Below are positions 1-54,443 of a stretch of DNA of 64,000 nt, piece after piece; positions within the stretch are counted from its first letter, which is position 1; every line of letters begins with the position of its first letter. The notes beneath the pieces were generated by a model. The model worked only from the letters and a program-made list of their open reading frames with translations, made no database searches and was not told the origin of the DNA. The translations under genes and the position numbers were made by a program. The DNA comes from Eledone cirrhosa. Lineage: Eukaryota. Location: the NCBI GenBank assembly GCA_964016885.1, contig OZ024742.1:208196001-208260000 (forward strand), written 5' to 3'.

Positions 1-787
1 CTGTTTTCATTTCTGTGCAGGTGTCTTTCCGGCACCTAAGTCAGAGAAATTCATTGTATATATTGATAAGCCACAAAAATAAACACAATAGATTGTTCAC
101 GACATGCACTTTACATAGTTATAAGTATATCATTTGCTTCATACATATGCACATTATGTTTATAATCACATTTACAACAGAATGATAATCAATCATATAA
201 GAGTGCTGCATTATTTACAACTTACATAATTACGAATGTAATGAAATCAATTATGTAAAATAAAATTACATTGATGATTATCTTTCTCATAACGATAGTG
301 GTCTTCTCAACACATGTGCCGTACCGCTAAAACAATTTGTCCAATTCTTGCAGTGATGGTGAGCCAGCGATCATTCTAAAGTAATTTTCTGTTACCTTTT
401 TTTTTTATCATTTCTAGTACTCCTACAATCACGGGTATTGAGATGTCACAGATTTTTTTCAATTTCATAAAGCAAATCTACCTGTTCTGAGCCTGTCAAA
501 TTCTTTTTGCCGATCTCAAGGGATGTTCATATCTATCTTCATCATTAAGACGAGTAATGCACTGGGGTCAATTTACTCGATTTTCCCCTCCCCTAAAATT
601 GTTGTCCTCGTTGTTCAACGGTTGTTCAACGGATTGAAATACGTTTGTCATTAATATTTATGTTTCGAACGGGAAATAATATTTTAGTCTTTGCCCCAAA
701 GAAAGGACTCCCCATAATATTTGGGCCTTTTGGCCCAAATATTTTAACTTCGTGTGGTTAAAAGAAATTTGTTATCGAAAAAAAAAC

Positions 788-2334
788 ATGGCGGAGGCAC
801 GCCCCCCAACTTTGACTTTGCTGTCTTGCGACAGCGAGTCAAACTCTGAGTTTAATAACGCTACCCCTCCCCCAACCATTTTAAATTGTAACAACACATC
901 AGGCAATATCGCCAACACCAGCACCAACAACAGTGAGAACAAAAATGACAACAGCAGCAACAGCGAGATTACCAAAAATACTAAAAAAAAAAAACAGTCG
1001 TGAACAAGAACGACAACAGCACCAACAACAACTAGACCAAAACGAAAAACAACTGCAATAATGACAACACCAACAACAGAAATAACGACAACAAAGACAA
1101 CAATATCAACAACAGTGACAACCACAACAACAGCAAAAACAACAATAACAATAGCAGTAGCAACAATATCAACGAAAACAACAAGGAAATTAACACCACT
1201 AACGAGAACATAAACAGCGACTGCACTAACAGCAACAATACCAACTGCATCGAAAACAACAAGAACGGCGGCACGAAAGACAACAATTATAACAGCAACA
1301 GTGATAACAGCAACGACACCAACAAGAACAACGACAACAACAACAACGCAACCAATGATAAGGAGAACACTTTCGCTGCGGCAGCAGCCAAAAAGAGACC
1401 ATGCTTCAGCATGGACCTCTCGAGCAAAGATGAAAAGTTGACCCAGGCCTGGAAGCTCATCAAACAAGAGCAAACCTCGGCCAACTTAACTGTCCCGGTA
1501 GAAGCTATTGATATAGTGGAGCGCAGAACGGTACATTACAGATGTATGTCAGCAGAAACCAAGAGGGCAGCTTTAATTCCACAAGCAGATGTCGAAGTCG
1601 CGCTGTGGTGCATCAGGGATGACACCGAATATATAGCGAGGGGCAGACAATACGGCACCATTTCGGAGCTGTTTAAGTCAGAAGCCCTCGCTATGAAACA
1701 TGCTATGACCCCTTACAATACCAGCGAGGTCATAATGTCCCTCCCACATGGGAAAACGAACTTCGCATTCCCAGAATCCCACCAGGACTTGACATATGGT
1801 GGCATCTGGGATGTGTGATTGTGGAGGGGACGGATATCGTCCCGATAGAAGTGACAAGAACTGCCAGAGAGGATTGGTCCGAGGTTGACCTGGAGATACT
1901 TCTCCAAATCAGGTCGGAGAATGTCAAAAAGTCCCGGACCACATCCGTCTTCAGAATGGGACGGTCATTCACATTATGAACAAATACACACACAAACATC
2001 TGAAACCACATACACCGCACTCACAACAAACTCAGACACAACAGAAACAACACCATCAAAACCATCACCACCACAGCCACGCAAATAAATAAAATCACAC
2101 CAAAAAACATACAAAATGTTGTGCTCGTCAGGAGGGCCAATAAGGAACTGATGGCCCTCGTAGCACGAAGTGAAGAAATACAAAAAGAGGGGACATTTTT
2201 AAATCTAGCACATTTAGCGTGCCGAAAGATTTGTTTCTGGTGCGAATGTCTCTCGATTTATAGAAAGAGATACGAGACAGCTTTCCTCGTATGGAGGTTG
2301 AACCACCCGACGTTCACAAGAGCCCGGAAGGTAA
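788..2334 (+). pseudogene. Tx1 copy A ORF1, frameshifted
   Basis: Asn/Thr-rich N-terminus, a TFAAAAA motif matching SFAGIAK/SFAIVAK in B/C, and RRTVHYRC matching HCTVTYRT. Multiple frameshifts. Confidence 0.75.
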
Positions 2335-2367
2335 ATAAACCTTTCCTCTCTCTTTTAGCCTGCCAAC

Positions 2368-5300
2368 ATGGCCGTATTAAGAGTAGGAAGTTTAAATGTT
2401 CGAGGCCTGGGATCATCCTGGAAACAGGGTCACCTGTTCAACCACCTCAGGTCTCTAGAAATGGATGTAATTGCCATCGGCGAGACCAGGAATTCCGACG
2501 AGCCCCCCTTTTCGACGACTATCAGATCTTTGCCTCTGTTAGTCGGCCGGGAATGGAAGGTGGGGTGGCAGTGCCGTTTAGGAAAGGCCTGGATCACGAG
2601 GTAAGGTCGATCTTCCGGGACCCGGACGGTATGTTGGTGGTCTTAGACGTGAACAATAACGAAGGTGGTGCCTTTAGACTGGTGACCGTCTACGCCCAAC
2701 TGGCGCAGGACGGCAGGACTTCTTTAGACGCCTGGAAGCCTTTCTGGGTACGTCTCGCCCTTTACTGTTAGCGGAGGACTGGAACAGCATCTTAGACGCA
2801 CGCTGGGACAGTGTGGGAATATTTCATAGGAGCGGGGGGGAGGAGGTGCAAAAGCCTCAAGTACCTGATCAACCAATTCCAACTGCCTGACAGGTACTGA
2901 ATAGATTTCCCTAATGCGCCAGTGTGGACCTGGACCAACCGCATAGGGTCATCTAGATCGTGTATAGACAAGGTATTCATTAGGAAAATAGACTGAAATA
3001 GTGTTGGCTGTCCACGTTTTAAAATGGTTGCCTATTCAGATCGCAAGTTTGTGATCTGTATGATCGACCTAGATAAGACGCGTAGGTTAGGACATGGTTA
3101 CGGGAAGCTGAACATATCATTTCCGGCTTACAGGGACCGGGTCAACAATTTAGTTAATAAAAAGTTGACAGGGGGAGTCGTCAATAATAGATGGTGGTGG
3201 AGGGGGGGGGGGCTCTCAAAGGAGAGATTAGAGTAACTTCGATAGGGTTTAGCAAAGAAGTAGCGTTAAAGAAAAATAGAGAGGAGGGGGAGCTGGTAGA
3301 TAAGTTAGACGAGGCTATTTGTAATGGCATTGTAAGTGACGTACTAGTGACGAGAATGGCATTAGACCATTTCTTCAATGCGAAACACGAAGGTTGCATG
3401 GTCAGAGCTAAGGCGCGTGCTCTGAGAAACGGGGGAACCAAAGCTGATCCATGGGACCGTGGAACAGGCGCAGCGTGGTAATAAAATCACGATTTGGTCT
3501 TTGACTACCGAGACAGACACGAGCTAAACGATTACAAGCGGATGCGTGAGGCCTTTCGTCAACATTTTTCTCGGTTATTCGGGGAAGTGGCGGGTCAGAA
3601 ACGTTGGCGGATTTCAGTCCCTACCTCGATGGCTTGCCGCAACTCTCGATGGCCGACGCTGAGCGCTGCGAAAGAACGATTACATCAGCCGAAAAATAGG
3701 ATGCCCTTGTCAGCTGCATGAGGCGCAAGTCACCAGGTTTTGATGGTCTGCCCTACGAGCTTTACGTAAATATGCCAGACTTGTTCTCCGATCTCCTCGA
3801 AGTGCTCTACTGCAACTGGCAACAGAACGGGAGTATTCCCAGTTCTGTCAGCCGGGGCGTAGTGACGCTGATAAGCAAAGACGAGAAAAAGAAGGACATA
3901 TTAGACAATTTCAGGCCCATAATTCTGCTCAACACAGAGTTTAAGATTTGGACAAAGGTGTTAGCGAAGAGGTTGGTGCTTGACGTCATGGATTTGGTTG
4001 GGGAGGCGCAAACATGCGCAATCCAAACGAGGTCCATACACGGCAACTTCCACCTCATGCGATACATCATAGAGAAGGTAGGGTGTACACCTGGCTTCTG
4101 TGGGGCTCTGATAAATTTAGATCAATCGAAAGCATTTTATAGGGTCGATTATCGGTACCTGGAGGCTGTCCTCAAGGTAGCTGGCTTCGGCCCCGTCTTC
4201 AGAAGCTGGATCGCTGCAATGCACAGCGGCATCTGCTCGGTGGTCAAAGTTAAGGGTCACCTCTCGGAATCGTTTCAGATTTCCCGATCGATCCGTCAAG
4301 GGTGCCCTCTCTCCTCCCTTTTGTACGTATTGACTCTCGAGCCTTTACTGCGGAAGCTTGAGTTGTAGCAGGGCATCCCGCTCGAAACGGGATGCAGAAG
4401 GAATGTGTCAGTTTATGTGGACGACATCACCGTGATGGTGTCGCACAACTCGGAAATCGAGGTGGTCGGCAACTTATTGGAGGAATATGAAAGGTTGACA
4501 GAAGCAAAACTCAACCTGGAAAAGTCGGTGGGCTTGCAACTCGGCACGCGGAGAAGCAAGTCCATGCCGTCCAACAGCGTCGATTGGCGCCTGACAGACG
4601 GACCGGTGAAGTTGCTCGGGGTTTGGTTCGGGCCAGAACTCCAGCTGGATAACACTTGGGACTAGGTGACAGCAAGGGTAGCCAGTCTCACCCAGAAAAG
4701 GGCTGCGAGGAAGCTATAACTGAAAGGTCGGGCGGAGGTGGCGAACGCGTACATCGCGTCCGTCATCTACTACCGCCTGACCTTCGACCATTTCCTACGC
4801 TCGCGCATTGCCAACTTGGAACGGCTCCTTTTCAAATTCTTGTGGAGGGGTCAGGTTTAGTTGGTGAGGCGGTCCATCTGCTGCCAGCACCCTCTACGTG
4901 GAGGGCTTGGCATGCCGTGGCTAAAGATGCGCAGACACGCGCGGAGGCTGCGGCATCTCCAGATATTCTTCCTAAACAGTGAACAGGTGTGGTCGCCGTT
5001 TGTCAGACGGGCCTTTCCGCAGCTCGTCTCTTTGACTGAGCTGCAGTTGTGGGTCTAGAAGAAACCAAAACTGGGTCACTGGCATCTGGAATGTTGGCAG
5101 GCACTCACTGCCCTCTACCAGGTGGGGAATGCGGTCATTTGAACTTCCACTCTCGAGTTCTATAGAGGTTTAGATATACGCAAGTACGACGACGCACTCC
5201 GAGAGGCTCTGGGCGTCGACGGAGTCGAACTAAGCAGTCTGTTGCGGAGGACTTACGAGCCGGAGGGCACTGCCGGTTCGAGATAAACTCTACAAGCAGG

Positions 5301-5750
5301 GAACTGCAGTCAGACGGAACTGCCCGAGATGTGCGCAGATCGATGAAACCGTTCTGCTCGCACTTGTCCAGTGTCCGTGCATTACAGACTTGTGGAGTTA
5401 TGTCGAACAGCCGTTGTCGCGTGTAGAATGGATCCGGCTATCGGCCGAGTCCATAGTGAGGATCGAACCGCCGCCTTCTTTTGGCCAGGAAGGGCAGGCA
5501 ATTTTCCTCTGTCTGATGTCAGTAGCGAAATAGGTTGTATGGTGGACCATATTGAAAGGTGTGAAGACAGACACTTTTCTCTTCAGCCAATCCCTCATCA
5601 AATTTGTCAAGTTTCACATGGAAAGGAAGCTGAGGGTGGAGAGAGAAGTTCTGCCCCCCCCCCCCATCTACCTCCAGTACATTTGCTGAAAGGTGGGTAA
5701 ATGTGGCGAGAATGGCCCGTTGGAGAGGGCCTACTCTGATCATGCGCCTG
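2368..5750 (+). pseudogene. Tx1 copy A ORF2 (APE endonuclease, RT, zinc finger), many stops and frameshifts
   Basis: ORF pieces at 2368, 3191, 3718, 4405 and 4861 align by eye to the 1139-aa ORF at 57120-60539. Confidence 0.92.
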
Positions 5751-6008
5751 CAGGTGGGTAAATTTGAGAGGGAGAGGGGTGTCTTCCCGGGTGCTCCAGA
5801 AGTGTCGGGTAGTTCAGAATTGGTGGCTCACCTGAGTAAACGCTGGGTGGTCACCCCCCTACCTATTAGGGAATTTTCTTGTATTTTATTGTTACTTTGT
5901 TATTGCTATTTATATTGTTTACACGTTGTATAAGTATATGTAAACCCCCACTGTCCCAGTCTTTTTTATTGTCCCCTATATGTCGGCCCTTGTGGCCAAT
6001 AAATGAAA

Positions 6009-6010
<2 letters not shown>

Positions 6011-6048
<38 letters not shown>
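6011..6048. repeat. (ATT)n between the Tx1-A 3' end and the R4/Dong-like 3' end
   Basis: Direct reading. Confidence 0.98.
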
Positions 6049-6051
<3 letters not shown>

Positions 6052-6926
6052 AATTGCATTTATCTTTCTTTATGTTCATATGAGCTATCACCCAGTCACA
6101 ACCAGTGACCTCAAGAGAATACAAGGTCCGCCATGTTCAAGAAAGAACATATATACACACACATGCATCTTTAGGTGTTTAGACTTGTGATGTACTTATA
6201 TTGACAGAATCTTCCTTAGTATATGGGCAGTTCCCATTAGTACTATCTTTTGTATTTCTCCGATACGCGGGTATCCTAGGATTTGCGATAAGTAATCATT
6301 AGACCCCTTAGGTATCATTCCTAGAGCGCCTACAACCACTGGTATTGTTTTAGTTCTCAATTTCCACATTTTTCCAATTTCTATCTCCAGGTCCTTATAC
6401 TTGCTCAATTTTTCAAATGATTTTATAGATACATTCTTGTCTATTGGAACGGACATATCAATTAGCAGGCATACCCTCTTTTTAAAGTCCTTCAGTATTA
6501 TATCAGGTCTATTTGGATCTATTTTTCGGTCTGTTTCGATGCTAAAGTTCCACAAGATTGAGATGTGATCTTTTTCAAGTATGGGAGGTGGTTGATGCTC
6601 CCACCAATTCTTTTGATGGGGCAGGTCAAAATGCTTACACATTATCCAATGTATGTATTGTGCAGCTCTGTCATGCCTGTTTAGGTATTCGGTTGGAGCT
6701 ATAGGACTGCACATTGAAATTATATGATCAATCGTCTCAGGTTGTTTTTTACATACACGGCATAATGGGCTGCATTCATTTTTTATTATGTTGGCTTGGT
6801 AATTTTTTGTTGGCAGACACTGATCTTGTGCTGATATAATCAGTCCTTCAGTCTCCGATTTCAGTCCAGAGGATGCCAACACTTGATGGGTTACAGTTTT
6901 CTCAACATCAGGATTGTTAGCTCTTT
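6049..6926 (-). mobile_element. 5'-truncated R4/Dong-like RLE non-LTR retrotransposon, family D1
   Basis: ORF 6196-6882 has the CRVC..ETIDHIISMC knuckle, RHD, and NRPDI...LIDMSVP...EKLSKY (PD-(D/E)xK nuclease). (TAA)n on both sides of the sense strand. Confidence 0.9.
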
Positions 6927-6960
6927 TATTATTATTATTATTATTATTATTGTTGTTATT

Positions 6961-8383
6961 ACTCTTTGAGTCTCAGTCATTGATGTTAGTTAACTGGAAA
7001 GTTTGTTGAAATGAATATCAAGCCAATACCTGCAGCCTCAGATATTCAGGACGTATCGGAGAGTTCTTGCTGTTCCCAGCAAGTATGCCTTTTGAAGCTT
7101 TCCAAAAAGCGTGAAAGGGGCCAATTTTCTTTAACCATCCCTGGAAACTTTTTGCGATAGTCCCTAGTGCGCCTATGACAATCGGGATCACTTTGACTTC
7201 ATGGCAGTTCCAAATCCTTTTTACCTCCCACTTTAAGTCCTGGTATCGGTTAATTTTCTCCCTCTCCTTCTCTTGCACTCTCGTGTCGAATGGGCAGGCC
7301 ACATCCACAATCAGGCACGATCTTTTTTCCTTGTCCACAACCACCAGGTCAGGTTTATTGTGTTCCAGTTTCTTGTCCGTCTGTATCCTAAAATCCCACA
7401 GTACCTTCACCTGATCGTTTTCTATCACCGCCTCTGGCTTATGCTCATACCACTTCTCAGAATGTGGTAAATTGTTTACTTTGCATAGGTGCCAGTGGAT
7501 CACCCTGCCCATCACATCATGTCTCCAGCCCTTATAGTGAGTCTGGAATAGGTGTTTACACTCGGATACAATGTGAGCCACAGTCTCCTCTCTCTCTCTC
7601 CACAGATCCTGCACAGTGGGCTAGCCTCCTCTTTGTAAATATGGTGTTTCAACCACTTCGTTTTGAAGGCCTGCTCCTGCGCAGCCATTAATATTTCTTC
7701 TGTAGCCTTCTTAAGGTCTCCTCTTTTCAACCAGTTCCATGTCTGTGGATCTCTAAATTTAGTTTTCTCAAAGAAGGTACTATGAAGGGATTTTTCATGA
7801 AGGTTGCTCTTTCTCCTTGATGTTATTTCCTCCTTGGACATCCCTTGGCCTATTGTCCCTTCCATCAGTACAGTTCTGAGCATTGGCTCGTTACTGTCAG
7901 TCACGTATTTGTGTAGGTTGTTTTTCTCCATCTGAACACAGTCCTCTATGCTGATAAGACCTCTTCCACCCTCAGATCTCCTTAAGTAGAGTCTATCGAC
8001 ATCACTCCTCTTGTGGAACATGTTGTAGATAGTCAATAGCTTCCTAGTCTTCTTATCCATTTCTTTCTGTTCAGCAACATTCCATCTCAGAATTCCCGCA
8101 CTGTACCTAATAATAGACACAGCTCGTGAATTTACTGCACTTATGGCATTCCTACTGTTCAGATGTGACTTCAATACGCTCTTTACTCTCCGAATGTATT
8201 CAGTTCTTATCAATTCCTTCATTTTTTTGTTCTTGATGTCATCAGCCTCCAGAACGCCCAAATACTTGTATCCTTCTTCAGATTCAATTTCCTTTATCAT
8301 CTCACCCGTTGGTACCTGGATTCCGTTACTTCTGCTCAACTTACCCCTCTTCATCACAATGACTCCACACTTACTAATACCAA
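6961..8383 (-). mobile_element. 5'-truncated R4/Dong-like RLE element, family D2
   Basis: YKYLG, LYLRRSEGGRGL, AAQEQA, CRIC..ETVAHIVSEC, RHD, NKPDL..IVDVACP, EKINRY. One frameshift near 7590. (TAA)n flanks. Confidence 0.9.
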
Positions 8384-8396
8384 ATTATTATTATTA

Positions 8397-8428
<32 letters not shown>
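8384..8428. repeat. (ATT)n between the D2 5' end and the Tx1-B 5' end
   Basis: Direct reading. Confidence 0.97.
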
Positions 8429-8643
8429 GAATGCCATGGTTGACGGAGGCTCGGCTCTGTAAGGTATAGTAATTTTTAACCGTTAAAACAATTGTAAATT
8501 GTTTAAAACTTGAACCAAATTGTTGATAAAGACACCCTCCTCCTCGTGAGAGGGGTCTTTCTGTCCGTTATTTGGCCCTTCGGGGTTAAATAACCAGTTA
8601 TTGGGGTTTTGTACCCAAAATTTCATTTTAAACAAAAAACAAC

Positions 8644-10737
8644 ATGGCTACGAAAAATAAATTTCATACGTCACTCCCACTCATTCCGTCTTCTTCTTCC
8701 TCAATCATCACTACAGCAGAGAGAAGATTGTCTCTCTCCCTCCCTTCTTTCAATGTGTCTCTCTCCCTCCCTTCTCTTTCGCAAGTGACGAAAGAAAAGA
8801 AAAGTCTCGTGCAAAGCGTGCAAGGTTTCTCCACGACGACGACGACAGCGACGAAACAGGTGTGCGGGAAATACGAAAACCCAGTTCATTCGTCTGACGT
8901 CAGGAATAATAGCAGTAGCAGCCGTAATAACAACAGCAACAGTGACAATGAAAACAACAGTAGCAGCCGCAACAGCATCACCAGCAGCATAAACAACAAC
9001 AGCATTAGCAGCAGCAACACCAACAACAACCACAGCAACAGCGGCGGAGTCAGTAGTCGTAGTACCTGCAGCAACAACAAAAGTACCAGCAGCTCTGACG
9101 ACAACAACAACAGCAGAGAAAAACCAATCTCATTTGCAGGTATTGCGAAAAACTTGGAAACAATCCTCATAACAAATGAGGAATTAGAGGAAGCGAAGAA
9201 GATGGTTACAAAGAACGTACACCGAGCAATCTGCAAGGCAGCGGAAAAATTTTTCGAAACCCAAGAGCACTGTACGGTCACGTACCGTACAGTAAGTACA
9301 AAATCCCGTAGGATGGAAAGAGCCACAGAGGCCCAAATACAAAAAGCCTTGGGGTCTGTGTGGCAGCGGAAAACGCACATCACCCGAGGCAAAAAATATG
9401 CCACCGTAGACGTACTTTTTGCCACACCCCAGGAGGCAAAGGCCCAATCAGTAGTGACCCTAAGGAGCGAGGAAATGGTGTTGGTGCCCTCCTACTGCGG
9501 GCAAAAAATTGTGAGGGTCAAACTGACCCACGTCCCCCCCAGAATGACCCCTTCTTGGCTGGCCGCGTCTGTCCTCGTCGGAATCGAGGACAAAACAACT
9601 GTACTGCAAGTACAGAAAAAAGTAAGAGAAGATTGGGTCGGCTCCTCCATTGAGATGCTAATCCAAACCAACCAGGAGTGCATCGAAGCTATCCCGGATG
9701 TGATAGACTTCGATAACGGCACTCAACTGCCCATAAGTGTTGAGGGCAAACGCCCGAAATGCTTTCGCTGTGGATCGAAGACTCACCTCAGGGCCTTCTG
9801 CAACGAGAAGACCCTGAGAAAGAAGAAAACCCCCCTCCTTCCGAATCCGGCTCCACGGCTACCAGCAACAGGACAAGCGGCAACCAGGAACGATAGGTCC
9901 GTGGCACCCATACCCACTCCACGGAAATCAAAAACAGCAGCAGCAGTGGAAATATTAACAACAACAACAGCAATACCAAATGCAGCTGCAACAGAGACTC
10001 CAGTGCAAACATCACCAACAACAACAAGTGAAAGAGTGGAGCTGGTACCCCTCCCCGACCTCACAGAATCAGACATGGAGTGTGAGGTGGGAGAGGGATG
10101 GCAAAATGTCGCAAGAAGGCACAAACGCAGAAGCAGCGCATCGTCGCCTTTGAAAAGGGAGGAAAGAAATGAGAAAAGGGTAAAGTCTACTGCAAAGAGA
10201 CCCACAGCAGCAACACCACCAACACCATCACCACCCACACCAGCACCACCATCACCACTGGCGACAACCCCACCGCCAACAACACCTTCAACACCACCAC
10301 CACAAGCACCAACATCGCAAACACAACAAAACACACACACCCAGCAACAACGACAAGAAAATAGCAGAACCACACCCCACCCCCAGAAAATCAAATGCAC
10401 GGCAATAAACACACACAACAAGAAACTAATGACTTACATAATTGAACACACAGACATTTCACAACAGGACTACATAATACCAGCACCAATCAAAACGCCA
10501 ACTAACATAAGACTGCTAAAAATAGCACAGAAACAATACACAAACATTAAAACGAAATTCCCCAACGCATTTGGTGATTTCAGGGACCTAGGAGGAACCA
10601 TCAATCGAAGAGTATATTCAGACATTCTCTTAGAAGAGCCGACGACCAGCCGAAGGGACGATTCAACGGTCCCTTCACCAGACGATCAAGTGAAAAGGGA
10701 TGTAAAAACCATCCCTCCTCTACCAAAAGTACGGTAA
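8644..10737 (+). CDS. Tx1 ORF1 protein (697 aa), intact, with CCHC zinc knuckle
   Basis: Uninterrupted ORF with CFRCGSKTHLRAFC (CX2CX4HX4C) and Asn/Ser- and Pro/Thr-rich tracts, directly upstream of ORF2. Confidence 0.9.
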   Translation: MATKNKFHTSLPLIPSSSSSIITTAERRLSLSLPSFNVSLSLPSLSQVTKEKKSLVQSVQGFSTTTTTATKQVCGKYENPVHSSDVRNNSSSSRNNNSNSDNENNSSSRNSITSSINNNSISSSNTNNNHSNSGGVSSRSTCSNNKSTSSSDDNNNSREKPISFAGIAKNLETILITNEELEEAKKMVTKNVHRAICKAAEKFFETQEHCTVTYRTVSTKSRRMERATEAQIQKALGSVWQRKTHITRGKKYATVDVLFATPQEAKAQSVVTLRSEEMVLVPSYCGQKIVRVKLTHVPPRMTPSWLAASVLVGIEDKTTVLQVQKKVREDWVGSSIEMLIQTNQECIEAIPDVIDFDNGTQLPISVEGKRPKCFRCGSKTHLRAFCNEKTLRKKKTPLLPNPAPRLPATGQAATRNDRSVAPIPTPRKSKTAAAVEILTTTTAIPNAAATETPVQTSPTTTSERVELVPLPDLTESDMECEVGEGWQNVARRHKRRSSASSPLKREERNEKRVKSTAKRPTAATPPTPSPPTPAPPSPLATTPPPTTPSTPPPQAPTSQTQQNTHTQQQRQENSRTTPHPQKIKCTAINTHNKKLMTYIIEHTDISQQDYIIPAPIKTPTNIRLLKIAQKQYTNIKTKFPNAFGDFRDLGGTINRRVYSDILLEEPTTSRRDDSTVPSPDDQVKRDVKTIPPLPKVR

Positions 10738-10772
10738 GTGGTCTTTCCCATCTTTTCCACTCTATTTTAAAC

Positions 10773-13700
10773 ATGACCTCACTCAGAATAGGCAGCATAA
10801 ATGCGCGTGGTTTGGGGTCGTCATGGAAGCAGGGTCACCTGCTCAACGACCTCAGGTCACTAAACATAGATGTAGTGGCCATCAGCGAGACCAGAATCTC
10901 CGAAGCACGGGCCTTCGCACCGATCTTCGGCGGCTACGATGTGTACGCATCTCCCAGCCGTCCTGGATCGGGTGGAGGAGTTGCTGTGCTATTTCGGAGA
11001 GGTTTGGATCTCGCCATACGGGCCATCTTCCTGGACCCAGAGGGTAAGCTGGTGGTGCTGGACGTGACCAGCGGAGACGGGCAAGCTTTCAGGCTAGTGG
11101 CCGTCTATGCCCCGACAGGAGCAGGGCGGCCTGATTTCTTCCGGCGTCTGGAGACCTTTCTTGGAACGTCCCGCTCTTTAGTGTTAGTGGGCGACTGGAA
11201 CGGGATCTTAGATGCACGCTGGGACTGTGTGGGATTAGCGGATAGGGGTGGAGGGTGCAAGAGCCTCACCAACCTGCTCAGGCGTTTTGAACTGTCTGAC
11301 AGGTACCGATTGGATTTCCCGAATGTGCCAATGTGGACTTGGACAAACCGCATAGGGTCATCCAGATCATATCTAGATAGAGTATTTTGTACGGAAATAG
11401 ATAGGTCTAGCAGAGGCTGTCCACAATTCAAGATAGTCAGCTACACGGACCACAAATTCGTGACCTGTGTGCTTGACTTAGATAGGCTTCATAGACGAGG
11501 ACCCGGCTACTGGAAGCTAAACGCGTCCTTACCAGCGCGCAAGGCCTACAGAGACCGGATTAGCGAACTAGTTAAGCGGGCGTTGACGAGGGTCATCGTC
11601 AACAACAAGTGGTGGTTTGCTCTGAAAAGAGCGATTAGAATAGAATCGATTAGGTTTAGTAAGGCTTTAGCAATAGAGAAAAATAGAGCAGAGGGAGAAC
11701 TAGTTAGAAAATTAGACGAGGCGCTTAGCAAAGGCATTGCGACCGACGTGCTTGCGGCGAAATTGGCCCTTGACCAATTCTTCAATGCAAAGCACGAAGG
11801 CTGCGTTGTCAGAGCTAGGGTGCGTGCTCTCAGACACGAGGGGACGAAAGCCGTTCAATGGGCCCGAGTGGCGGAGGCGCGTCGTGGCAACAAAGCCACG
11901 ATCCGGTCTTTGGTGAACCACGACGGGCGCATGCTACTCGATCCCGGGCAAATGTGTGAAGCTTTTCAGCGACACTTCGCTCAGCTGTTCGGGGGCAGCG
12001 GTGGGCCGGGTAGAGGGATGGACTTTAGTGTCTACCTCGACGGACTGCCGCGGCTCTCGGCCACTGAGGCGAAGTGTTGCGAAAAGCCGATAACAGCCGC
12101 TGAAGTAAGGGAGGCAATGACTGGCTGCACAAGGGGTAAATCGCCTGGTTTGGATGGTCTGCCCTATAAACTTTACGTACAGATGCCAGACTTGTTCGGA
12201 GGCCTCTTGGCGGACGTCTACTGCAACTGGCAACAAAACGGGAGAATTCCCAGTTCTGTGAGCCGAGGAGCGGTGACACTGCTGAGAAAGGATCCGAACA
12301 AGGGGGATAACATAGAAAATTTCCGGCCCATAACTCTGCTAAACACAGAGTTTAAGATTTTGGCCAAGGTGCTAGCAAAGAGGTTGGCGCTTGTCGTTGG
12401 TGGTCTGGTATGAGAGGCGCAGACATGCGCCATTCCCGACAGATCCATCCACGACAACCTCCACCTCATGCGATACATCGTAGAGAGGGTAGCTAGGGAA
12501 CCTGGCACGGGTGGGTCCTTGATCAATTTAGATCAGTCGAAAGCTTTCGATAGGGTCGACCATCGTTACCTAGCGGCAGTCCTGAGGGCGGCTGGCTTTG
12601 GGCCCGTCTTCAGAGGCTGGATCGCTGCCATGCACAGCGACATCTGCTCTGTGGTGAGAGTGAACGGTCACCTGTCGGAACCGTTCAACATCATGCGCTC
12701 GGTCCGCCAAGGATGTCCCCTCTCGTCCCTCTTGTACGTATTGACTCTCGAGCCATTACAGCACAAACTGGAGACGTTGAGGGGAGTCCCGCGCGAACTA
12801 GGATGCGGAAGATCCGTGTCAGCATATGCGGACGATGTCACCGTAGTGGTGTCGAACGCCAAACACATCGAGGCGATCGGCACTACACTAAGAGAATACG
12901 AAGCGGTGACAGGAGCAATGATCAACCAGGAAAAGTCAGTGGGCCTGCAGCTCGGCACCTGGAGAGGCAGGTCCATGCCGTCCAACAGCGTTGTCGGACG
13001 CTGGACGGACGGACCGGTTAAATTGCTAGGGGTCTGGTTCGGTCCGGACCTCCAGACTGACAAAAACTGGGACGAGGTGACGAGCAGGGTGGCTTCTCTC
13101 ACCCAGAAATGGGCGGAGAGGAAGCTATCCCTGAAAGGTCGAGCGGAGGTGGCTAACGCGTACATCGCGTCTGTCATCTGCTACCGCCTGACCGTCGTAC
13201 CCTGTCCTAAGCCTCGCCTGACTGCGCTGGAGCGTTTGCTCTTTCGCTTTTTGTGGAAGGGACGTGCTCCGATGGTCAGGCGATCCATCTGTTGTCAACA
13301 CCCGCTACGTGGAGGGCTGGGCATGCCGTGGCTGATGATGCGCAGGCACGCGCTCAGGCTACGACATCTCCACCTCTTCCTCGACGGTGATCAGGTGTGG
13401 TCGCCGTTTGCTAGGCGCGTATTTCCGCAGCTCGTTTCCTTGACGGAGCTGCAGTCCTGGGTCAAGCGAAGACCGAGAGGGAGCGCCTGGAGACTGGAAT
13501 GTCTTCAGGCGCTCTCAGCCCTCGACCAATCGGGCAATGTGATCGGTGGAAACTCAACCTCGGCGTTCTATAGAGGATTAGTGGAGGGTAAGAGCGACGA
13601 CGTACTTGGGGAAACTCTAGGCGTCGACGAAAATCAACTAGCCAATCTCTTCGGAAGAACTTTCGGGCAGGGGCCTATGGACAACTTCCAGAAATCTCTG

Positions 13701-14185
13701 GCCTGGCAGTGCTACCGAGGAGCCTTGCCAGTTCGGGATAAACTCTACAGGCATGGAGGTGCCGTCAGCCGGGCATGTCCGAGATGCGGGCAGGGCGACG
13801 AAACCGTCCTGCACGCACTCGTCCAGTGTCCGAAAATTGCTGACTTTATGTCGAACACCTGCTGTCGCGTTTAGGACGGATCCGGCTATCATCTGAGTCC
13901 ATCGTGAGGATTGCCCCTCCCTCCTCCTTTAGCCGGGAAGGGCAGGCAGTTTTTATCTGTCTGGTGGCCATGGCGAAAGAGATAGTATGGTGGACACGTT
14001 TGAAAGGGCTGAAGACGAGCACTTACCGCTTCGGTGATGCTCTGATTGACTTTTTCAAATTTCATTTGAAAAGGAAAATCAGAGTAGAGAGGGAAGTGCT
14101 CTCTTCCCAGCATTTTGTTGAAAGATGGGTGAGAGAAGCAAGAATGGCCCGAGTGAATGGGCCTACTCTGAGTATATATCTGTAA
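10773..14185 (+). pseudogene. Tx1 copy B ORF2 (APE-RT-zf), inactivated by two lesions
   Basis: Nearly identical to the copy C ORF2 except TGA at 12411-12413 (GGA in C) and a 7-nt deletion near 13846. YADD present. Confidence 0.95.
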
Positions 14186-14444
14186 ATTAAAGGTGGAAAA
14201 CTGGGAGAGGGCACTTGCCTTGGTGGTCAGGGTCATTGTGGCTTTTTACTGGGCTTTCTCCACAAATGTCCCTCCGAAGTCTCCCCCCTATTGGGGAATT
14301 TTCCATTGTTATTTTCATTGTTATTTTTGTTACATCCTCTGTTTTTGTTTTTTACACGCAGAAATGCCCATTTGTACCGTTCTGCATTGTCCTGCACTGT
14401 CTTTAATGTCTACTTTATGTAAACCCTTGTGGTTAATAAAGAAA

Positions 14445-14446
<2 letters not shown>

Positions 14447-14476
<30 letters not shown>

Positions 14477-14485
14477 TTTATTATC
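14447..14485. repeat. (ATT)n at the Tx1-B 3' end
   Basis: Direct reading. Confidence 0.97.
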
Positions 14486-15171
14486 ATCAAGTACCTACTG
14501 CTGTATTTATTTTCAATAAATGATGATTACAACGACCAAGGTGAGAAGAGAGTTTAAGATCCATCATTAATATTTTCTCTCCACACACACGTTTGTGTGT
14601 TGATAATTGTTATAATATATTTTAAAGAAAGCAGGGAGGAAATGTGTATAAGCTAAGTTTAACCAGTTCTTATTGCCCACTATATCACAAAATTGTCATC
14701 TTGAAACATCAAACCGTGTAGTCTATGATACATCCTGCCCTCTCTAATGAAATGATTTTCCATTTTCTTCCACTTTTCTCTTCTTCCAGTTTTCAAAGAC
14801 CTCGCAAGATAATTTATTTCCTTATATAAACAGTAATCAACATATTTATCCATTTACTGTTGAATGTATAGTCTTGAATGTGATTAAAAGTGATTAAACC
14901 AGGCATCATAACATGACGACCAGCTATTTCTCAATGCAGCGAACTTGTCTATCTAACCCTTTATTTTTTCTCAGTGTGGTACGTGTGTATGTAATTTGGG
15001 GAAGGAGATCAATCGTATATATCGACGCCAGTATTTGAATAGTATATTGTTTTATCGAAAACAGAAGAATGGAGAACAAATCGATGTATATGAATATGTC
15101 CTTAGTATGTTAGAAGCTGGAACAAATAACGCAAATCATTTTGTCCGACACGAGTCTACCAAATATATTGA

Positions 15172-15290
15172 TTTCTACTTTAGTCACAAGGCCAGCGAGG
15201 TTTTGAGGAAAGGCAATGTAGATTAAATCAACCCCAGTACTTGACTGGTACTTTATCTTATCGAACACAAAAGTATAAATGGCAACGTTC
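15172..15290 (-). mobile_element. Degenerate SINE 3' fragment
   Basis: TTTCTACTTTAGTCACAAGGCCAGC...CTGGTACTTTATCTTATCGA matches the SINE at 46427. Confidence 0.65.
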
Positions 15291-21442: not shown

Positions 21443-21782
21443 CTATGAGAATTTTGGTAAAATTTATGTGCAGTTTTCTTCAAACTTCTATTTTGTACCT
21501 AATTCCGTGTAGTTAACTATTTGCCTAGTCAATTTCTACAGGCTAAAAGAAATAATTAGATAAGTGTTATATGGCTGTACATCGCGGAAAATAATCTGTA
21601 TTATTTGTCTATTATTTCTTCATAACTACATTTTAAACGTATAGCCTCGTTTAAATGATTTTTTATGTGGTTGATTTATACTGATTAGGAGAGGAAATAC
21701 TGTATATATTTTATCTAATGGTTCTTTGGACTTACATTTATATATATATATATATATTTATACATACATACACAAATGTCAA

Positions 21783-24770
21783 GTCAGGTCTCCGCCTGCT
21801 ACTAGTACCATGTAGCCAAGAACAGCCTGTTGCATGGTCGGGTGGTCGGTGACTAAACTGATTCCCACACCAGACATTGGTCTGTCATGGAGGATATGTG
21901 GAAACCCAGCAGCACAAAACCAAGAACTGCCAAAGGGCAGATCAACTCCACTGCGTCAACGGCCATCTACGCTAACTATTGATTGAATAGCCTCACCAAC
22001 CTGCAATTGGCCAAGCGTGGTAACTACAACCACACCCCTTGTAGACGTTAAACTACATGAAAATAACACATGTGATTATCGTAAATGTCCTGCTATCTTG
22101 TCTTGGCTTCTCAGTGGACACATAGCTGAGGGGAGAGAGTGGGTGCTATGTGTGTCACGCAAACACGTAGCATTGCCATCTTTATGTGCAGATATTTCTT
22201 TATAAAGGTTATGGTGATGGAGGAGTGGCAACATTTGCACACTCGACCCGTCGAAACATATGGGCGGCTCGAGTCTTATTCTAACGTCACTGCACTGTTA
22301 ACCAGGACAGCAATATGTTCCAGTAGAGACTTGAGATTCTGAGCATCCCTTGTTGGGGATGCACTGGTCACTCATACCAAATAGAAAGGGTCTTGAAAAG
22401 GTGATACAAACAAAGCCTTTTCAGTAAGACAACTCACCAGCAGCCTGTGGTTGGTTGTGGCTCATTATAGCAGGGCATAATAAGAGATACTATAACAAAA
22501 ATGTACAGAATGAATGTCGGTATTTGGAACATAAAGACACTTCTTGACAGCAGGATGTTCGATAATCCTGAACGTCGAACTGGTTTGATAGAAAAGGAAT
22601 TGGTGCGGTATGGTATTGATACATGACTGATTGGTGAGGATCATTTAACAGAATCCGTATTGGGTTATATCTTTTTTCTGGAAGGGCAAGCCTGGTCGAG
22701 AGACACGTTAGCAAGGTGTAGGTTTTGCCACTCGCACTGAGCTAACCAGCAATCTGGAGCAATCCTACGATGATAGAGACTGAATCATCGACCTTACTGC
22801 ACAACTGTTCTTTGACTATATTTTCCGTTTAGGCTCCGACTCTCTCCGGTACATAATGGCATTATATCAAGATCTTCGATCTGCCATTGCCAAACTCCCA
22901 AAAGTAGATACGATTCTTCTTTTTGATGATTTTAACGCCAGGATTCATAGGGATCACGTGACTTGTGAAGTTTTGGGGAAGTACGGTCTTGGAAGCATGA
23001 ATGGGAATCGACTGCACTTTCTTCAGCTGTGCATTGAATTTGAACCAATTATTTGCAACTCCTTTCCCACCAGATATATGTTCATAAGTTTACTTGGATT
23101 CACACAAGATCAAAATATATGCATATTCTGTCGTAAACGAGATCTTCGGATGTGTGCACTGTCCAGGATATGCGTCGTGCTGTGTGTGCGACATACTATG
23201 CTCTAGTATGTGGCAAGAAGGAATTTGGCATCAAACGTAAAATAAGATCTAATGGGACAAGGCGTAGATATGTCGAGATTGCAGGACCCCAGTGTCCGTA
23301 AGGAGCTGAGGAGGGCTTTAGAAGAAACAGAATTTGACGGCACATGTGATCGGTTTAAGACGGCAGTTTACAACTCTAGTGTTGGAATTGTAGGTTTTAT
23401 TGGTAAGAAACAGATCAAGAACTATTGAAAGCAAAAAATGATGCTCATCAAAAGTTCTTTAGATTGCTTCAGATAAAAATCGTCTGCCTTGCTTCAGTCC
23501 TTCAAGAATGCAAAATCTTTTCTCCAGTGCGGAATCCGATTGATTTATGTTATTTGGTCGAGTAGTCCCGTTCCTCAAGTCAGGATTGGTCCTGGTATTC
23601 TTGTTCAAGGGAAAAAGGAAAATTCGGTGTGTAACAACTATCGGGGAATATGCTTAACTAAGGCAGTGGGTAAAACATTTGCAAATCTTCTCCTAAATAG
23701 TTGATTTGCCCTCGAGTGATTCCGGAGAGGCAATGTGTCTTTAGGTTGGGCAGGGGCACAATGGACATGATATTCTCGGCTCGACAGATGCTGGAGATTT
23801 ATTCAGAAGACTGCGTGTCTTTGCTACCATATTTTATGTTGACCTCATCAACACTTTTGGCTCGCTGAATAGGGATACCCTGTGGACCATTCTTGGTAAG
23901 GTGGGATGCCGTCCGGATTTCCTGAGATTATTCAAACGGCTACATGACAGTATGAAAGGGGGTGGTAACTTCAATGGTTCTCTGTTTGAAACCATATGCA
24001 TCGACAATGGGAATAACCAAAGGGACATTCCAGCACAACTCTGTTCTCTATGTTCTTTGCCGTGACGTTTGCCCTTCAGAATTGCGATGTCGGCGTGTGT
24101 CTTCATTTCAGAAACTACCTGCTTTGAGCAAGGCACTTAAGGCGGATGGCAGATGAAAGGGTACGTTAGCGGATTTGATATGGACAGTTAATTCTTGATA
24201 AACGCTCCAGACACGAACACCAGAAACGTTGCAGGGTTGTTGTCAAAGGCAACCTGATGGCACTAGGTATAAGTGTTGAGGATTGGGAAAACGAGGCAAA
24301 GTGTAAATCTTGGAGAAGTCTGCATCATGATGGTTGTGATCGTTTTGAGGTAAAAAGAATGGAGCATTCGGTGTTTAAAGGAGCACGCAGTAAAGGTGAT
24401 TTAGGCTGAGTCCCAGAGGATATCTGGTCGGAGCAGGTCTGTAGCATCTGTGGAAAGGTTGTTCTTTCTGGGAACCGGGTTTAATAGTCATTTAAGTAGT
24501 CACAACAATCACCAGTCTGGGACCGATTATGTTGTGCTACATGCAAGGCTTGCGGGGGCATTTCTGTCAGTTTTGCAACAAAGCTTGAAGGCTTTCTGCT
24601 GAACCCCAGCAGTACATGAGAGTGCATAAGGAGTTACCCTTAAGACTGTCTGGGAGATCATCTGTAAAATATTATGAAAGAGCGAGGCGAGTTTGCGGAG
24701 TTATTTGCGAGTTCATGGCAGTTCAGCACAATTTTGAAGAGATGGCCCTCTTCTGTAAAGAAGTGGCAAT
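21783..24770 (+). mobile_element. Old, heavily degraded RTE-clade LINE
   Basis: Remnants NPERRTG, GYIF, DDFNARI, CNNYRGICL..AVGKTFA and FRLGRGTMDMIFSARQ, preceded by a 5'UTR. Confidence 0.8.
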
Positions 24771-34608: not shown

Positions 34609-35231
34609 ACCACTACTACTACTACTATCATACACATAATCACCGTTATCTTTATTGACTTTATTAACCCGAGATTATAAATACTATGTATTTATATTCC
34701 AGCCAGGAAAGCTGGAGTCAAAATGATTAGATTGATATATATAAAGAGACACGTCAAAAATGACCTCAATGGATGGATACTAGTACACGAATTATATAAC
34801 AACTCTTGCTATTCAGTCAATTTTGTAGCCAAGGAAACCATACGCATGATGAATCGATAATTTTACATATAGAGATAGGAAATCAAGACGAACATGTTAA
34901 TATTGCTGACCTCAGCTCCAGACTGTTCAAGACTGTAGGAGCGATTTGTGTTTTTAGTCATCGCATATATTATTGTTGTTTATAGGTTTTACATGTTTAT
35001 ATACATAAATTCCCACTGTCCCTGTCTATTGCATTGTCCCTGTATGTAGCCCCTCGTGATTATTATTATTATTTTTATTATTATTATTATTATTATTATT
35101 AGTAGTAGTAGTAGTAGTTTTAGTATTAGTATTGGTAGTAGTAGCATTAGTAATACTCGTATTGTTTTTAATATTTTAATATTATCTTGTAATATATACG
35201 TATATATATACATAAACACACATACACACAT

Positions 35232-39519: not shown

Positions 39520-40276
39520 ATCGCGGTACTATCTACCTATGAGGCATGATGTAGTTGCCAAAACACAGTACAATGCAATTCGTAAAAAAGATAGCCCCGA
39601 TAAAAACACATTAAAAGCTACAGCAATGTGGAAGACATTCATGTACATAATATGAAAGAGTACTGGTGGAATGTTCCAGTAAAAACCCCAATAAAATGCA
39701 GGCATAACAGACCAGATATTATGATATGGAGCAGGGAGAAGAAGACATGCACAGTAGCGGAAATTAGCTGACCAGCAGATGCCAATATAATATCAAAGAT
39801 TAGTGAAAAGGAGAATATTTATGCAGAACTGATGAGAAATCTGCAGATACTCCACCCTGATTACACCTTCAGATTTATGCCTGTGATTATTGGGGCCCTG
39901 GGGTATGTTAGTAACTGCCTCAATACAAATCTTGAGAAGCTAGGCTTCACAGGAACAGAAAGAACACAACTAGTTAGGAAATTACAAGTACAATCCATTA
40001 ATGGAGCAGTAAAAAATATGTAAGACATTCCCAAAATTTTGCAATTTATAACTGCATATAGACATATACAGATGCAAAGCATATACACATGCTCACATAC
40101 AACTCAAAACATACACATCCACACATACAATAACATCCATATCCACACATGCATGCATACATACATACTTATCTAGTTGATGTTGTGTAAATTCCAATGA
40201 GAGAGTCTTGTGTCTATGTTAGAAACCGACTCTCGCTCTATTGGTAAAACTTCATTAAATTATAAAACTAGAAGAA
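39520..40276 (+). mobile_element. RLE (R4/NeSL-type) element 3' fragment, family D3 copy 1, in (CATA)n
   Basis: YYLPMRHD, HNRPDI, KENIYAELMRNL..PVIIGALG. Ends AGAAGAA then CATA. Confidence 0.88.
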
Positions 40277-40290
40277 CATAGATACATACA

Positions 40291-40898
40291 TGGTGGCTGC
40301 CAACTCGTTTTCGAGTACGGCCACTACTTTATATCCATGTAGGAGAACCCCTACCGATGCGCTGAACGAGTGTGACTTTTTAGTCCAGCCAGCGACTTGA
40401 AAACTCTGGTACAAACACTACACTTGTGACAATTACTGACACATAGTGCTGGGCCCATGGTACCATGTGACGACAAGTGCACAGAGATCTCCAGATATAA
40501 ACCAATGCCTGTGCCGTGAAGCTTTTATAGTGAGCAAAGGCACTGCACAAAGCCAGTCCCACTCTCTTAACCAAAATGATATTCACCAAAAAAAAGAACA
40601 AGTCAACATAATTGGATACCATCAGGGTTGCAGGTGTTATATCAGAGTTTTCCTTCTCCTAGAATTCTGCCTTGACAAAGGCTAAGGGGTCATCTCTCTC
40701 GGTGGTTTTGTATGGCCATTGAGTCTTAAGAGCTATTTTGCACTTTGACAGGTTTTGCTTTTAGTCCTGCAGGATGTCCAAAGTCATCCTCCTCACCAAA
40801 AAACCTTGGTGGAGTTGCCAGTTTAGTCACCAACGACCCGACCATGAGACAGATTGTACTGGGATACATGTTACCAGTAGCAGCAACTGGTGACCTGG
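40291..40898 (-). mobile_element. ~610-bp non-coding RTE-derived non-autonomous element, copy 1
   Basis: Reverse complement of 40810-40898 matches the 5' start of the RTE at 21783. A near-identical copy lies at 43316-43922. CATA repeats on both sides. Confidence 0.72.
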
Positions 40899-41014
40899 CA
40901 TACATACATACATAAAGACATGCATACATACATACATACATACATACATACATACATACATACATACATACATACATACATACATACATACATACATACA
41001 TACATACATACATA
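40899..41014. repeat. (CATA)n microsatellite
   Basis: Direct reading. Confidence 0.98.
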
Positions 41015-42430
41015 AAGAAAGATTCAGTCATCGGAACTCTCTGCGCAAAACAAAACAGTGGCTCACAATGTGTTTGCTGTGCCTGTCCTAACACCAACGT
41101 TTGGAATACTCAATTGGACGATAGACGAAATACAAGCATGTGATGTTAAAACTCGAAAAATCTTAAACAACACCGGAAACTTTCACATCGTATGTGACAT
41201 AGACCGCCTTTACTTGAAACGTAAGCGTAGGTGCCCGTCTCTCCAGCAAGTCTATCTGCATGAAATAGATAAGATCATGAGAGTTAGGAAGGAACTCCTC
41301 GGGAGATATTCCCTGTGTGATAATCAAAATCGCACACCCAGGGAAGTCGTTCAGCAGTATCGCAGTGAATCCATGGGTTAAAAACTGCATGCATATCAGC
41401 AAAAAATCATGCATGGATATGTTGACAGGAAGACCCAGAGTGAAAATAATATAGATAAGGAAAGTAGTCTATCTTGGACCAACAACCGCTATATTGGCTC
41501 CCACTTCGAAGGATACGCTTTTAAAATCCAAGTACAGGAAATTAACATCTGTCTCAAAAGAGATATGGATGCAGACAAAACACCTAGATGTGATAACAAG
41601 TACAGACTCTGAAGAATTAACATCGAAGATGTCATCTATGTCATCAGCAGCTGCCCAAAGATGCCATCGCGGTACTATCTACCTATGAGGCATGATGTAG
41701 TGGCCCAAACACTGTACAATGCAATCCGTAGAAAAGATAGCCCCGATAGTAAACACATTAAAATCTACAGCAATGTGGAAGACATCCATGTACATAATAT
41801 GAAAGAGTACTGGTGGAATGTTCCAGTAAAAACCCCAATAAAATGCAGGCATCACAGACCAGATGATATCATATGGGACAAGGAAAAAAGCATGCACAGT
41901 AGTGGAAATTAGCTGCCCAGCAAATGCCAATATAATAGCAAAGATTAGCGAAAAGGAAAATATTTATGCAGAACTGATGAGAAATCTGCAGATACTCCAC
42001 CCTGATTACACCTTCAGATTTATGCCTGTGATTATTGGGGCACTGGGGTATGTTAGTAACTGCTTCAATACAAATCTTGAGAAGCTGGGATTCACAGAAA
42101 CAGAAAGAACACAACTAGTTAGGAAATTACAAGTACAATCCATTAATGGAACAGTAAAAATATGTAAAACATTCCAAATATTGTGCATCTAATAATTGCA
42201 TATACACATTTACTGATACAAAGCCTATACATATGCACACATACAACTCAAACATACACATACACACATACGATAACATCCATATCTACACATGCACACA
42301 TGCAGTCATGCATACATAATCTACCTGGTTGATGCTGTGTAAATTCCAATGAGAGCGTCCTGTGTCTATGTTAGAAACCGACTCTCTCTCTCTATTGGTA
42401 AAACTTTGTGAAATTATAAAACCAGAAGAA
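41015..42430 (+). mobile_element. RLE element family D3 copy 2 (longest, 5'-truncated, degraded)
   Basis: AHNVFAVPVLTPTFGILNWT..DVKTRKIL..DIDRLYLKR, RHD, RPD, VVEISCP. Same 3' end as copies 1 and 3. Confidence 0.9.
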
Positions 42431-42577
42431 CATACATACATAAATACATACATACATGCATACATAAATACATACACACACACACATTCATGCATACATA
42501 CATGCTTAAATACATACATGCTTATATACATACATGCTTAAATAAATAGATCCATACATACAAACATATATGACGAT

Positions 42578-43011: not shown

Positions 43012-43107
43012 CATATACATACACATACATACATGTATATAAATGTATACATATTTTTATATATATATATACATACACATGCATACATGTATATACATAT
43101 TTACACA

Positions 43108-43300
43108 TTTTTGGATGGCCGTGGGCTCTTATGGGCTCTTCCGCCTTTTGTCAGGTTTTGTTTTTTGTCCTGCAGGGTGTCCTAAATCACCATCCTCATC
43201 AAATAAAGTTGGTGGAGTTTCCAGTTTAGTCCCCGACGACCCGATTATGCGACAGAATGTACTGGGTGACATGTTACCAATAGCACTCATGGGTGACCCT
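43108..43300 (-). mobile_element. Partial copy of the RTE-derived element (head only)
   Basis: Aligns to ~40705-40898. Confidence 0.75.
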
Positions 43301-43315
43301 ACATACATACATACA

Positions 43316-43922: not shown

Positions 43923-44007
43923 CATACATACATGCATACATACATACATACATACATACATACATACATACATACATACATACATACATACATACATACA
44001 TACATAC

Positions 44008-54437: not shown

Positions 54438-54443
54438 CTTACG

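Follow-up and report, generated by a model that had tools for sequence, protein, structure and literature searches.

How did a 3-bp microsatellite in an octopod genome come to be packed with retrotransposons of unrelated nuclease classes, each family facing the repeat in its own fixed sense? The question is raised by a stretch of 64,000 nucleotides from Eledone cirrhosa (GenBank assembly GCA_964016885.1, contig OZ024742.1, positions 208,196,001 to 208,260,000 of the forward strand; hereafter ‘the window’). Two nests within it, hub 1 (about 0.55–14.5 kb) and hub 2 (54.9–62.8 kb), consist of long interspersed nuclear elements (LINEs) of L1/Tx1 type, with an apurinic/apyrimidinic-type endonuclease (APE), 3′ fragments of R4/Dong-type elements with a restriction-like endonuclease (RLE), and one family of short interspersed nuclear elements (SINE), all between ATT arrays. 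The order and strands of these elements had been given correctly by an earlier sequence-only reading, as had the meeting of two nuclease classes in opposite sense on common arrays: APE domains are present in the LINE we call Tx1-C, and RLE motifs in the fragments D1 and D2. Our analysis indicates that the hubs are probably the product of separate insertions between ATT arrays, with Dong nicking the (TTA)n strand, and Tx1, along with a SINE that shares its 3′ hairpin, nicking the (AAT)n strand.

Hub 1 begins with the 3′ half of an old SINE of a long subfamily (546–640, plus strand), which aligns to the SINE copies at 15170–15289 and 46540–46625 and is a possible seed of the hub. Next comes Tx1-A (660–6010, +), a degraded L1/Tx1-type LINE whose 5′ end is approximate and has no ATT array upstream. 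An (ATT)13 array (6011–6050, +) serves as both the Tx1-A 3′ tail and the 3′ flank of D1, forming a tail-to-tail junction. D1 (6051–6927, −) is a 5′-truncated R4/Dong-type RLE 3′ fragment with (TAA)n at both ends in its own sense. An ATT array (6928–6961, +) separates its 5′ end from the 3′ end of D2 (6962–8383, −), a 5′-truncated R4/Dong-type RLE fragment. D2 represents a second family: over part of its length its DNA is about 62–64% identical to that of D1. The (ATT)15 array that follows (8384–8428, +) joins the 5′ ends of D2 and Tx1-B head-to-head; Tx1-B itself (8429–14446, +) is a young, near-full-length LINE, and an ATT array (14447–14484, +) closes the hub on the right. With a SINE and no array at the left edge, only 6011–14484 is demonstrably array-nested.

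Hub 2, read on the minus strand, opens with an ATT array at the Tx1-C 5′ end (62771–62805, −), a feature beyond the sequence-only reading, as are the 3′ hairpin common to SINE and Tx1 and a third hub in (CATA)n. Tx1-C (56874–62770, −) is followed by an array (56826–56873, −) at a tail-to-tail junction with D2′ (55643–56825, +), a 5′-truncated R4/Dong-type fragment in reversed orientation with (TAA)n at both ends. Four SINE copies come last (54885–55031, 55092–55235, 55263–55443 and 55453–55629, all −), each ending in ATT and lying in arrays of 3–20 units (54864–55642), of which the outermost (54864–54884) marks the start of the hub on the plus strand. A near-perfect inverted repeat of about 120 bp, a foldback, lies just to the left (54440–54680). 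An ATT array is thus present at every internal junction of both hubs, and on their sense strands Tx1 and the SINE read ATT while all three Dong pieces read TAA. The proposal that a single microsatellite grew into a 14-kb hub suits hub 2, which an array bounds on either outer side. It does not suit hub 1, bounded on the left by a decayed SINE. D2 had likewise been placed in both hubs; the copies are related, but D2 and D2′ are only 88% identical and are not one family at high identity.

The Tx1 elements carry the newer part of the argument. Tx1-C has an intact open reading frame (ORF) 2 of 1139 amino acids (57120–60539) matching the Pfam domains Exo_endo_phos, RVT_1 and zf-RVT, that is, APE, reverse transcriptase (RT) and zinc finger; of solved structures, human L1 ORF2p matches it best (E 2e-49; R2, 1e-18). 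ORF1 of Tx1-C is frameshifted. Tx1-B has a 5′ untranslated region (UTR) of about 215 nt and an open ORF1, and its ORF2 is interrupted by a stop at 12411–12413 and a frameshift near 13847. Both ORF1s contain a CCHC knuckle (C-x2-C-x4-H-x4-C), and the domain search found no match to Transposase_22 or RRM in Tx1 ORF1; a CCHC knuckle in ORF1, rather than Transposase_22, is tied to the Tx1 type (PMC5203782; here and below, papers are cited for the available portions of their text). Tx1-A is 74% identical to Tx1-B and Tx1-C and retains an RVT_1 match, its tblastn pieces being frameshifted throughout. The nearest named relatives of Tx1-C are Argonauta proteins (58–66% identity), and a quick tree of 63 rows groups it with one Argonauta protein and two unnamed proteins (SH-aLRT, the Shimodaira–Hasegawa-like approximate likelihood ratio test, 99). 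Since neither the tree nor the matches include a named Tx1 reference such as Tx1L, Keno, Kibi or Koshi, membership of the Tx1 clade is assigned by architecture; the ESM Atlas returned only generic RT/APE and C2H2 clusters, without family names. Tx1-B and Tx1-C are 95% identical over ORF2 and 64% identical over part of ORF1, and their 5′ UTRs are unrelated, a contrast (8429–10770 against 60540–62770) that suggests exchange of the 5′ module or conversion of ORF2.

Several side observations concern these elements. Each of the three Tx1 copies has hairpins predicted in its 5′ UTR, shortly before ORF1 begins (700–790, 8565–8640 and 62560–62640; z −2.3, −1.8 and 0.3 for Tx1-A, Tx1-B and Tx1-C), and one of those in Tx1-C can be drawn with a loop like that of the 3′ hairpin. 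A contig of one sequencing run (X1) joins position 11554 in Tx1-B ORF2 to 7239 in D2 on the same strand, with no array and a side of 47 letters, and is perhaps a chimeric copy from elsewhere in the genome. Distant relatives of about 30% identity in a limpet and a fish (the P0116 and P0194 protein clusters) bear locus tags that lie close together, which is what tandem target arrays crowded with elements would give.

At their 3′ ends all four Tx1 copies in the window, including a solitary Tx1-A-like stub (34970–35058, + strand, 34970–35101 with its ATT tail), finish in (ATT)n, and none of the four has poly(A). The 5′ ends are more telling. Tx1-B and Tx1-C begin directly behind 11–15 ATT units in matching sense, so that both young copies, which have different 5′ halves, lie on target against a background of 0.08–0.22% of positions: across the window, 278 of 127,976 strand-positions follow 12 nt of ATT repeat in the matching sense, as do 67 of the 84,292 that lie outside both hubs. 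On-target 5′ ends are found in two of the four Tx1 copies (B and C, not A or the stub), a small number from an ascertained window. Among the 10 hub LINE and SINE copies with a tabulated 5′ junction, nine lie directly behind at least three ATT units, the exception being Tx1-A; this enrichment is ascertained, because the window was picked for its ATT pattern. A target-site duplication was considered for Tx1-B and rejected, the common stretch being repeat plus the last bases of Tx1-B itself. Taken together, the junctions make it likely that an octopod Tx1 lineage prefers (ATT)n, as judged from this one window.

For Dong, the corresponding preference is known biology. D1, D2 and 17 relatives share the invariant residues C..C, H, C, RH, PD, D and K..KY..L of a CCHC motif and RLE, and the D1/D2 profile matches only R2-type structures. 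The three window pieces lack the N-terminus, where R4/Dong elements carry a Myb-like domain, and most of the RT. Contigs of other runs continue past the 5′ ends of D1 (624 letters, run X6) and D2 (342 letters, run X4), showing both to be 5′-truncated, and D2′ starts within the coding region. All three have (TAA)n in sense at the 3′ end and at the 5′ junction. Relatives were drawn from 80 metagenome loci found with a D1-based alignment and one locus from a viral collection. Among the 51 metagenome loci whose match reaches the C-terminus (29 were dropped), 40 are informative and 11 have flanks that are too short; the repeat met first downstream is TAA in sense in 32 of the 40 and TTA in four, and four have none. 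At the other end, the 81 loci contain 86 R4-like pieces, 57 of them with at least 40 nt upstream, and within 80 nt of the 5′ break these 57 show TAA in 35, both senses in two, TTA only in none and neither in 20. Many of the metagenome loci are non-independent, being almost the same copy drawn from a small number of hosts. The (TAA)n polarity of Dong is a conserved family trait, and the earlier statement that Dong/R4 targets (TAA)n agrees with these flanks and with the literature: in most insects, molluscs and cnidarians Dong is stated to target (TAA)n (PMC7998251); PMC3812793 gives the same target, but files Dong under APE elements, unlike PMC7998251. In Octopus vulgaris both Dong-R4 (1129 copies) and L1-Tx1 (421 copies) have been recently active (PMC13282606, which as available gives no target for either). 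Beside the Dong relatives in the 81 loci we found no Tx1-like element, Tx1-C matching only their own RT, and weakly. Within one group of these loci (L005, L073, L054, L074 and L058), some Dong relatives have a TAA run that turns into TTA where it meets the element, and both orientations of Dong copies are present in L058, which indicates that arrays can invert locally.

Because polarity is fixed within each family, the opposite orientation of Tx1 and Dong in ATT arrays amounts to one binary outcome, a single coin flip. The opposition noted in the sequence-only reading is there to be seen, but its weight was overstated, for it is no repeated coincidence; it is already expected, implies no special relationship and is not news.

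The SINE provides a separate line of evidence. A profile built from five copies has 12 matches in the window, four in hub 2 and eight solitary with at most short ATT tails. Tandem duplication of the hub SINEs was rejected as an origin: each has its best match in a solitary copy and not in its neighbour (S4, 97% to the solitary copy at 46432 against 91% to its hub neighbour; S1, 92–96% to solitary copies against 85%), so the hub SINEs were inserted separately. Together with the arrays at every internal junction, these separate insertions support the earlier claim that insertion regenerates the target. When the last 30 nt were compared anchored at the end, all seven SINE copies tested matched Tx1-A (p 0.0005–0.028); a Dong origin of the tail was rejected, no copy matching D1, D2 or D2′ at p<0.15. 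In alignment, SINE and Tx1 3′ ends have in common a short stem around a CUUGU loop, followed by a spacer rich in A, then GAAA, then ATT. In Tx1-A the hairpin (5985–5997, +) has a 4-bp stem and overlaps an AATAAA just before the array; its counterparts lie at 14422–14434 in Tx1-B and 56886–56898 in Tx1-C. In an alignment of twelve 3′ ends the loop columns hardly vary, and both partners of three of the four stem pairs differ between elements (C-G in Tx1, G-C in the SINE; G-C in Tx1-A, A-U in Tx1-B and Tx1-C); covariation is 0.53, with slid controls reaching at most 0.10. A composite motif, defined after the ends had been seen, occurs six times, at three Tx1 and three SINE ends; shuffled sequence gave 0.05 on average. 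The common CUUGU hairpin and ATT tail suggest that Tx1 likely mobilises this octopod SINE, a good lead rather than proof, taken from one window with the other LINE tails of the genome unseen. A pattern search for the SINE in viral contigs gave no matches. Octopus SINEs such as OK, OR1 and OR2 are tRNA-derived, with a tRNA-related head; no Rfam family reached its gathering score in the window.

In target-primed reverse transcription, the nicked strand primes cDNA synthesis on the RNA's 3′ end. The strand that a family chooses therefore fixes its orientation, and two families choosing different strands come to lie head-to-head and tail-to-tail. An RNA ending in (AUU)n would use the (AAT)n strand, and one ending in (UAA)n the (TTA)n strand. 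AATAAA stands about 6–7 nt before the array at Tx1 3′ ends, so RNA 3′ processing would fall within the repeat and would give an (AUU)n end able to pair with the nicked strand; the Tx1 machinery would prefer an array but not require one. Each insertion would divide an array in two, with repeat remaining on either side, which would supply more targets and may be how the hubs grow. Hub 1 would have received the old SINE first and Tx1-A second; D2 and D1 would have followed, inserting into the Tx1-A tail, and Tx1-B would have come last. This order is in line with the decay of Tx1-A and with divergence from contigs of other runs, about 1% for Tx1-B (run X4), 3% for D1 and 5% for D2. A broader version, that an abundant octopod SINE is a passenger of an (ATT)n-homing Tx1 by way of the CUUGU hairpin, that the pair seeds arrays genome-wide which Dong uses from the opposite strand, and that the (CATA)n pair described below hints at a general rule of RLE opposite APE, is possible but doubtful.

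A number of observations weigh against our reading. For the order of events in hub 1, divergence from another run’s contig is only a rough proxy for age. The Tx1 target claim comes down to two junctions in one window chosen for its ATT pattern; neither Tx1-A nor the stub at 34970 has an array at its 5′ end, and searches of viral, prokaryote-genome and metagenome contigs yielded no further Tx1 loci. The match of the SINE tail, about 25 nt in all, is weaker against Tx1-B (p 0.0005–0.36), less consistent against Tx1-C and absent from the stub. The bare hairpin motif is not enriched (14 occurrences; shuffle mean 8, maximum 15), the hairpin has unexceptional stability (z −0.45 to −1.7), and the predicted minimum free energy structure of the SINEs pairs its bases differently. 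Motif and structure were moreover designed post hoc on related rows, so the shuffle controls overstate the support.

The stub, and the eight of 12 SINE matches that are solitary, outside arrays and with short tails only, show that targeting by Tx1 and the SINE is not strict, and they lend weight to an account in which both merely carry an (ATT)n tail and insert by microhomology at AT-rich sites, while Dong, the sole true targeter, homes into the tails. Tx1-B and Tx1-C would then lie behind arrays through weak bias and local insertion tolerance. Consistent with this, the solitary full-length SINE at 46427–46616 (+) has an ordinary 17-bp target-site duplication that merely starts with two ATT units, and RTE and other LINEs commonly carry microsatellite-type tails (PMC9115989, PMC5786205). 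A tail accounts for 3′ arrays only, however; the 11–15 units at the 5′ ends of Tx1-B and Tx1-C need something more, no element that could have supplied it is recognised beyond the Tx1-C 5′ array, and four SINEs are stacked separately in one array. We therefore regard passive tails as an unlikely explanation of the hubs, though one to be taken seriously. Far less credible is an origin by local duplication, recombination through arrays or mis-assembly in place of serial insertion. Two pairs of hub 2 SINEs do share a 5′ start (model position 34, and position 1–2), Tx1-B and Tx1-C are nearly the same over ORF2, and none of the contig pieces listed spans a hub. Duplication is hard to reconcile with hub SINEs that match solitary copies best, with D1, D2 and D2′ being 62–88% identical and truncated at different points, with the differing 5′ halves of Tx1-B and Tx1-C, or with hubs that differ in order and content.

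The sequence-only reading had also raised convergent transcription as a source of antisense or PIWI-interacting RNA (piRNA) substrates, and the opposed layout could in principle be a selected or active source of double-stranded RNA or piRNA. At the tail-to-tail junctions (6010/6051 and 56825/56874), Tx1 read-through past AATAAA would be antisense to the Dong 3′ end. All three Dong pieces are 3′ fragments without the 5′ part and so likely lack a promoter, which makes transcription converging from Dong unlikely; the orientation follows fixed family polarity and needs no selection. The proposal is thus unsupported, and we give it almost no credence; at most, one-way Tx1 read-through antisense to the Dong 3′ end is possible. 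Serial insertion from opposite strands is the reading we retain.

Other sequencing runs contain parts of 5700–14700 in 20 run rows from 15 studies, with half or more present in five rows; none of the rows listed is RNA, which says nothing on expression. Four runs were compared, and their contigs break at arrays, so the junction letters of other copies do not show. No empty hub was seen among the 15 joints listed of about 5,900. In X4 and X6 the right flank is uncovered, from which nothing follows. X1, with 0 differences from either flank, may be the source and so is non-independent.

The layout of hubs 1 and 2 recurs in (CATA)n arrays at 39520–44479 (hub 3). There, three truncated copies of an RLE family (E; 39520–40277, 41015–42430 and 44009–44479, all +) have (CATA)n arrays at both ends, and a short RTE-related element (F; 40292–40898, 43109–43300 and 43317–43921, all −), present as two whole copies and one partial, reads (ATGT)n. 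Family E is about 25–32% identical in amino acids to Dong relatives and has only two unnamed homologues (48–55%); it is possibly an R4-like family with a tetranucleotide target. Element F ends in a C2H2-like frame, and over its 5′ part it shares 73% identity with the beginning of a decayed LINE at 21.8–24.7 kb. That LINE, full-length (21775–24770, +) and ending at a long (TA)n array, has a weak RT match; we take it to be of RTE type from its motifs. With the RLE on the A-rich strand and the RTE-related element on the T-rich strand, hub 3 provides a second opposite pair; two of two has a chance probability of 0.25, which leaves a rule of RLE opposite APE at the level of hypothesis. Elsewhere in the window, an RT fragment (52931–54145, +; RVT_1, E 3.7e-27) is preceded by sequence that resembles a reversed LINE 3′ end, possibly a 5′ inversion.

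If the pattern holds genome-wide, an A/T-only microsatellite would join the list of Tx1 targets, and two unrelated endonucleases reading one 3-bp repeat from opposite strands would form a clean system for studying the evolution of target and strand choice. It would also help to explain ATT microsatellite loci embedded in repeats and would be one route to transposable element hotspots. Like Dong, DongAg, DongBg and the ostracod Dong, D1, D2 and D2′ have an RT and RLE C-terminus, sense (TAA)n at both ends and 5′ truncation onto the array; nothing substantial sets them apart, whereas family E is more distant and lies in (CATA)n instead. Opposite orientation has a precedent in SART and TRAS, both R1-clade APE LINEs, which insert into the telomeric (TTAGG)n of insects in opposite orientations by nicking opposite strands; the pair described here differs in combining APE with RLE and in using interstitial microsatellites.

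The Dong target was already known and the opposite polarity is no novelty; the newer part is the likely (ATT)n preference of Tx1 and the tail that it likely shares with the SINE. We found no (ATT)n-targeting Tx1 in the literature, though Repbase, Dfam, Kojima and Fujiwara 2004 or supplements may record one. The available portions of PMC4758252, PMC4824008, PMC3531059, PMC8967140, PMC9115989 and PMC4640811 name no partner LINE for an octopus SINE, and Tx1 appears neither in the table of 58 SINE/LINE shared-tail pairs of PMC3747384 nor in the main text of PMC5786205, as far as these were available. Both the preference and the partnership thus appear unreported in the literature searched; Repbase, Dfam or Ohshima and Okada 1994 may record either. 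If it holds genome-wide, the partnership would put forward a candidate driver for a SINE in animals whose genomes are rich in SINEs (11.6% of the genome in O. vulgaris; PMC13282606).

The closest parallels are the microsatellite-specific Tx1 elements Kibi, in (TC)n, Koshi, in (TTC)n, and those of crocodilians, in (TTCC)n and (TTTC)n, which like ours have two ORFs, a CCHC knuckle in ORF1 and an APE-RT-zinc finger ORF2 (PMC4494074, PMC3812793). They have microsatellite on both flanks in fixed sense (PMC4494074, PMC3812793), as do the two young Tx1 copies of the window, and are defined by more than 20% of flanks on target (PMC4494074); the window offers four Tx1 copies, two of them on target, in a stretch chosen for the pattern. 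The targets of Kibi, Koshi and the crocodilian elements are pyrimidine-rich on one strand and the hosts vertebrates, whereas the octopod Tx1 would use (ATT)n and overlap the Dong target from the other strand. The SINE, too, has a counterpart in crocodilian SINEU, inferred to be mobilised by Tx1-Mar, with which it shares an imperfect target (13–90% of SINEU copies at target; PMC4494074). That case was argued from target, age and U1/U2-derived 5′ heads (PMC4494074), and ours is argued from a 3′ hairpin and tail, the classical signature of a stringent SINE/LINE pair.

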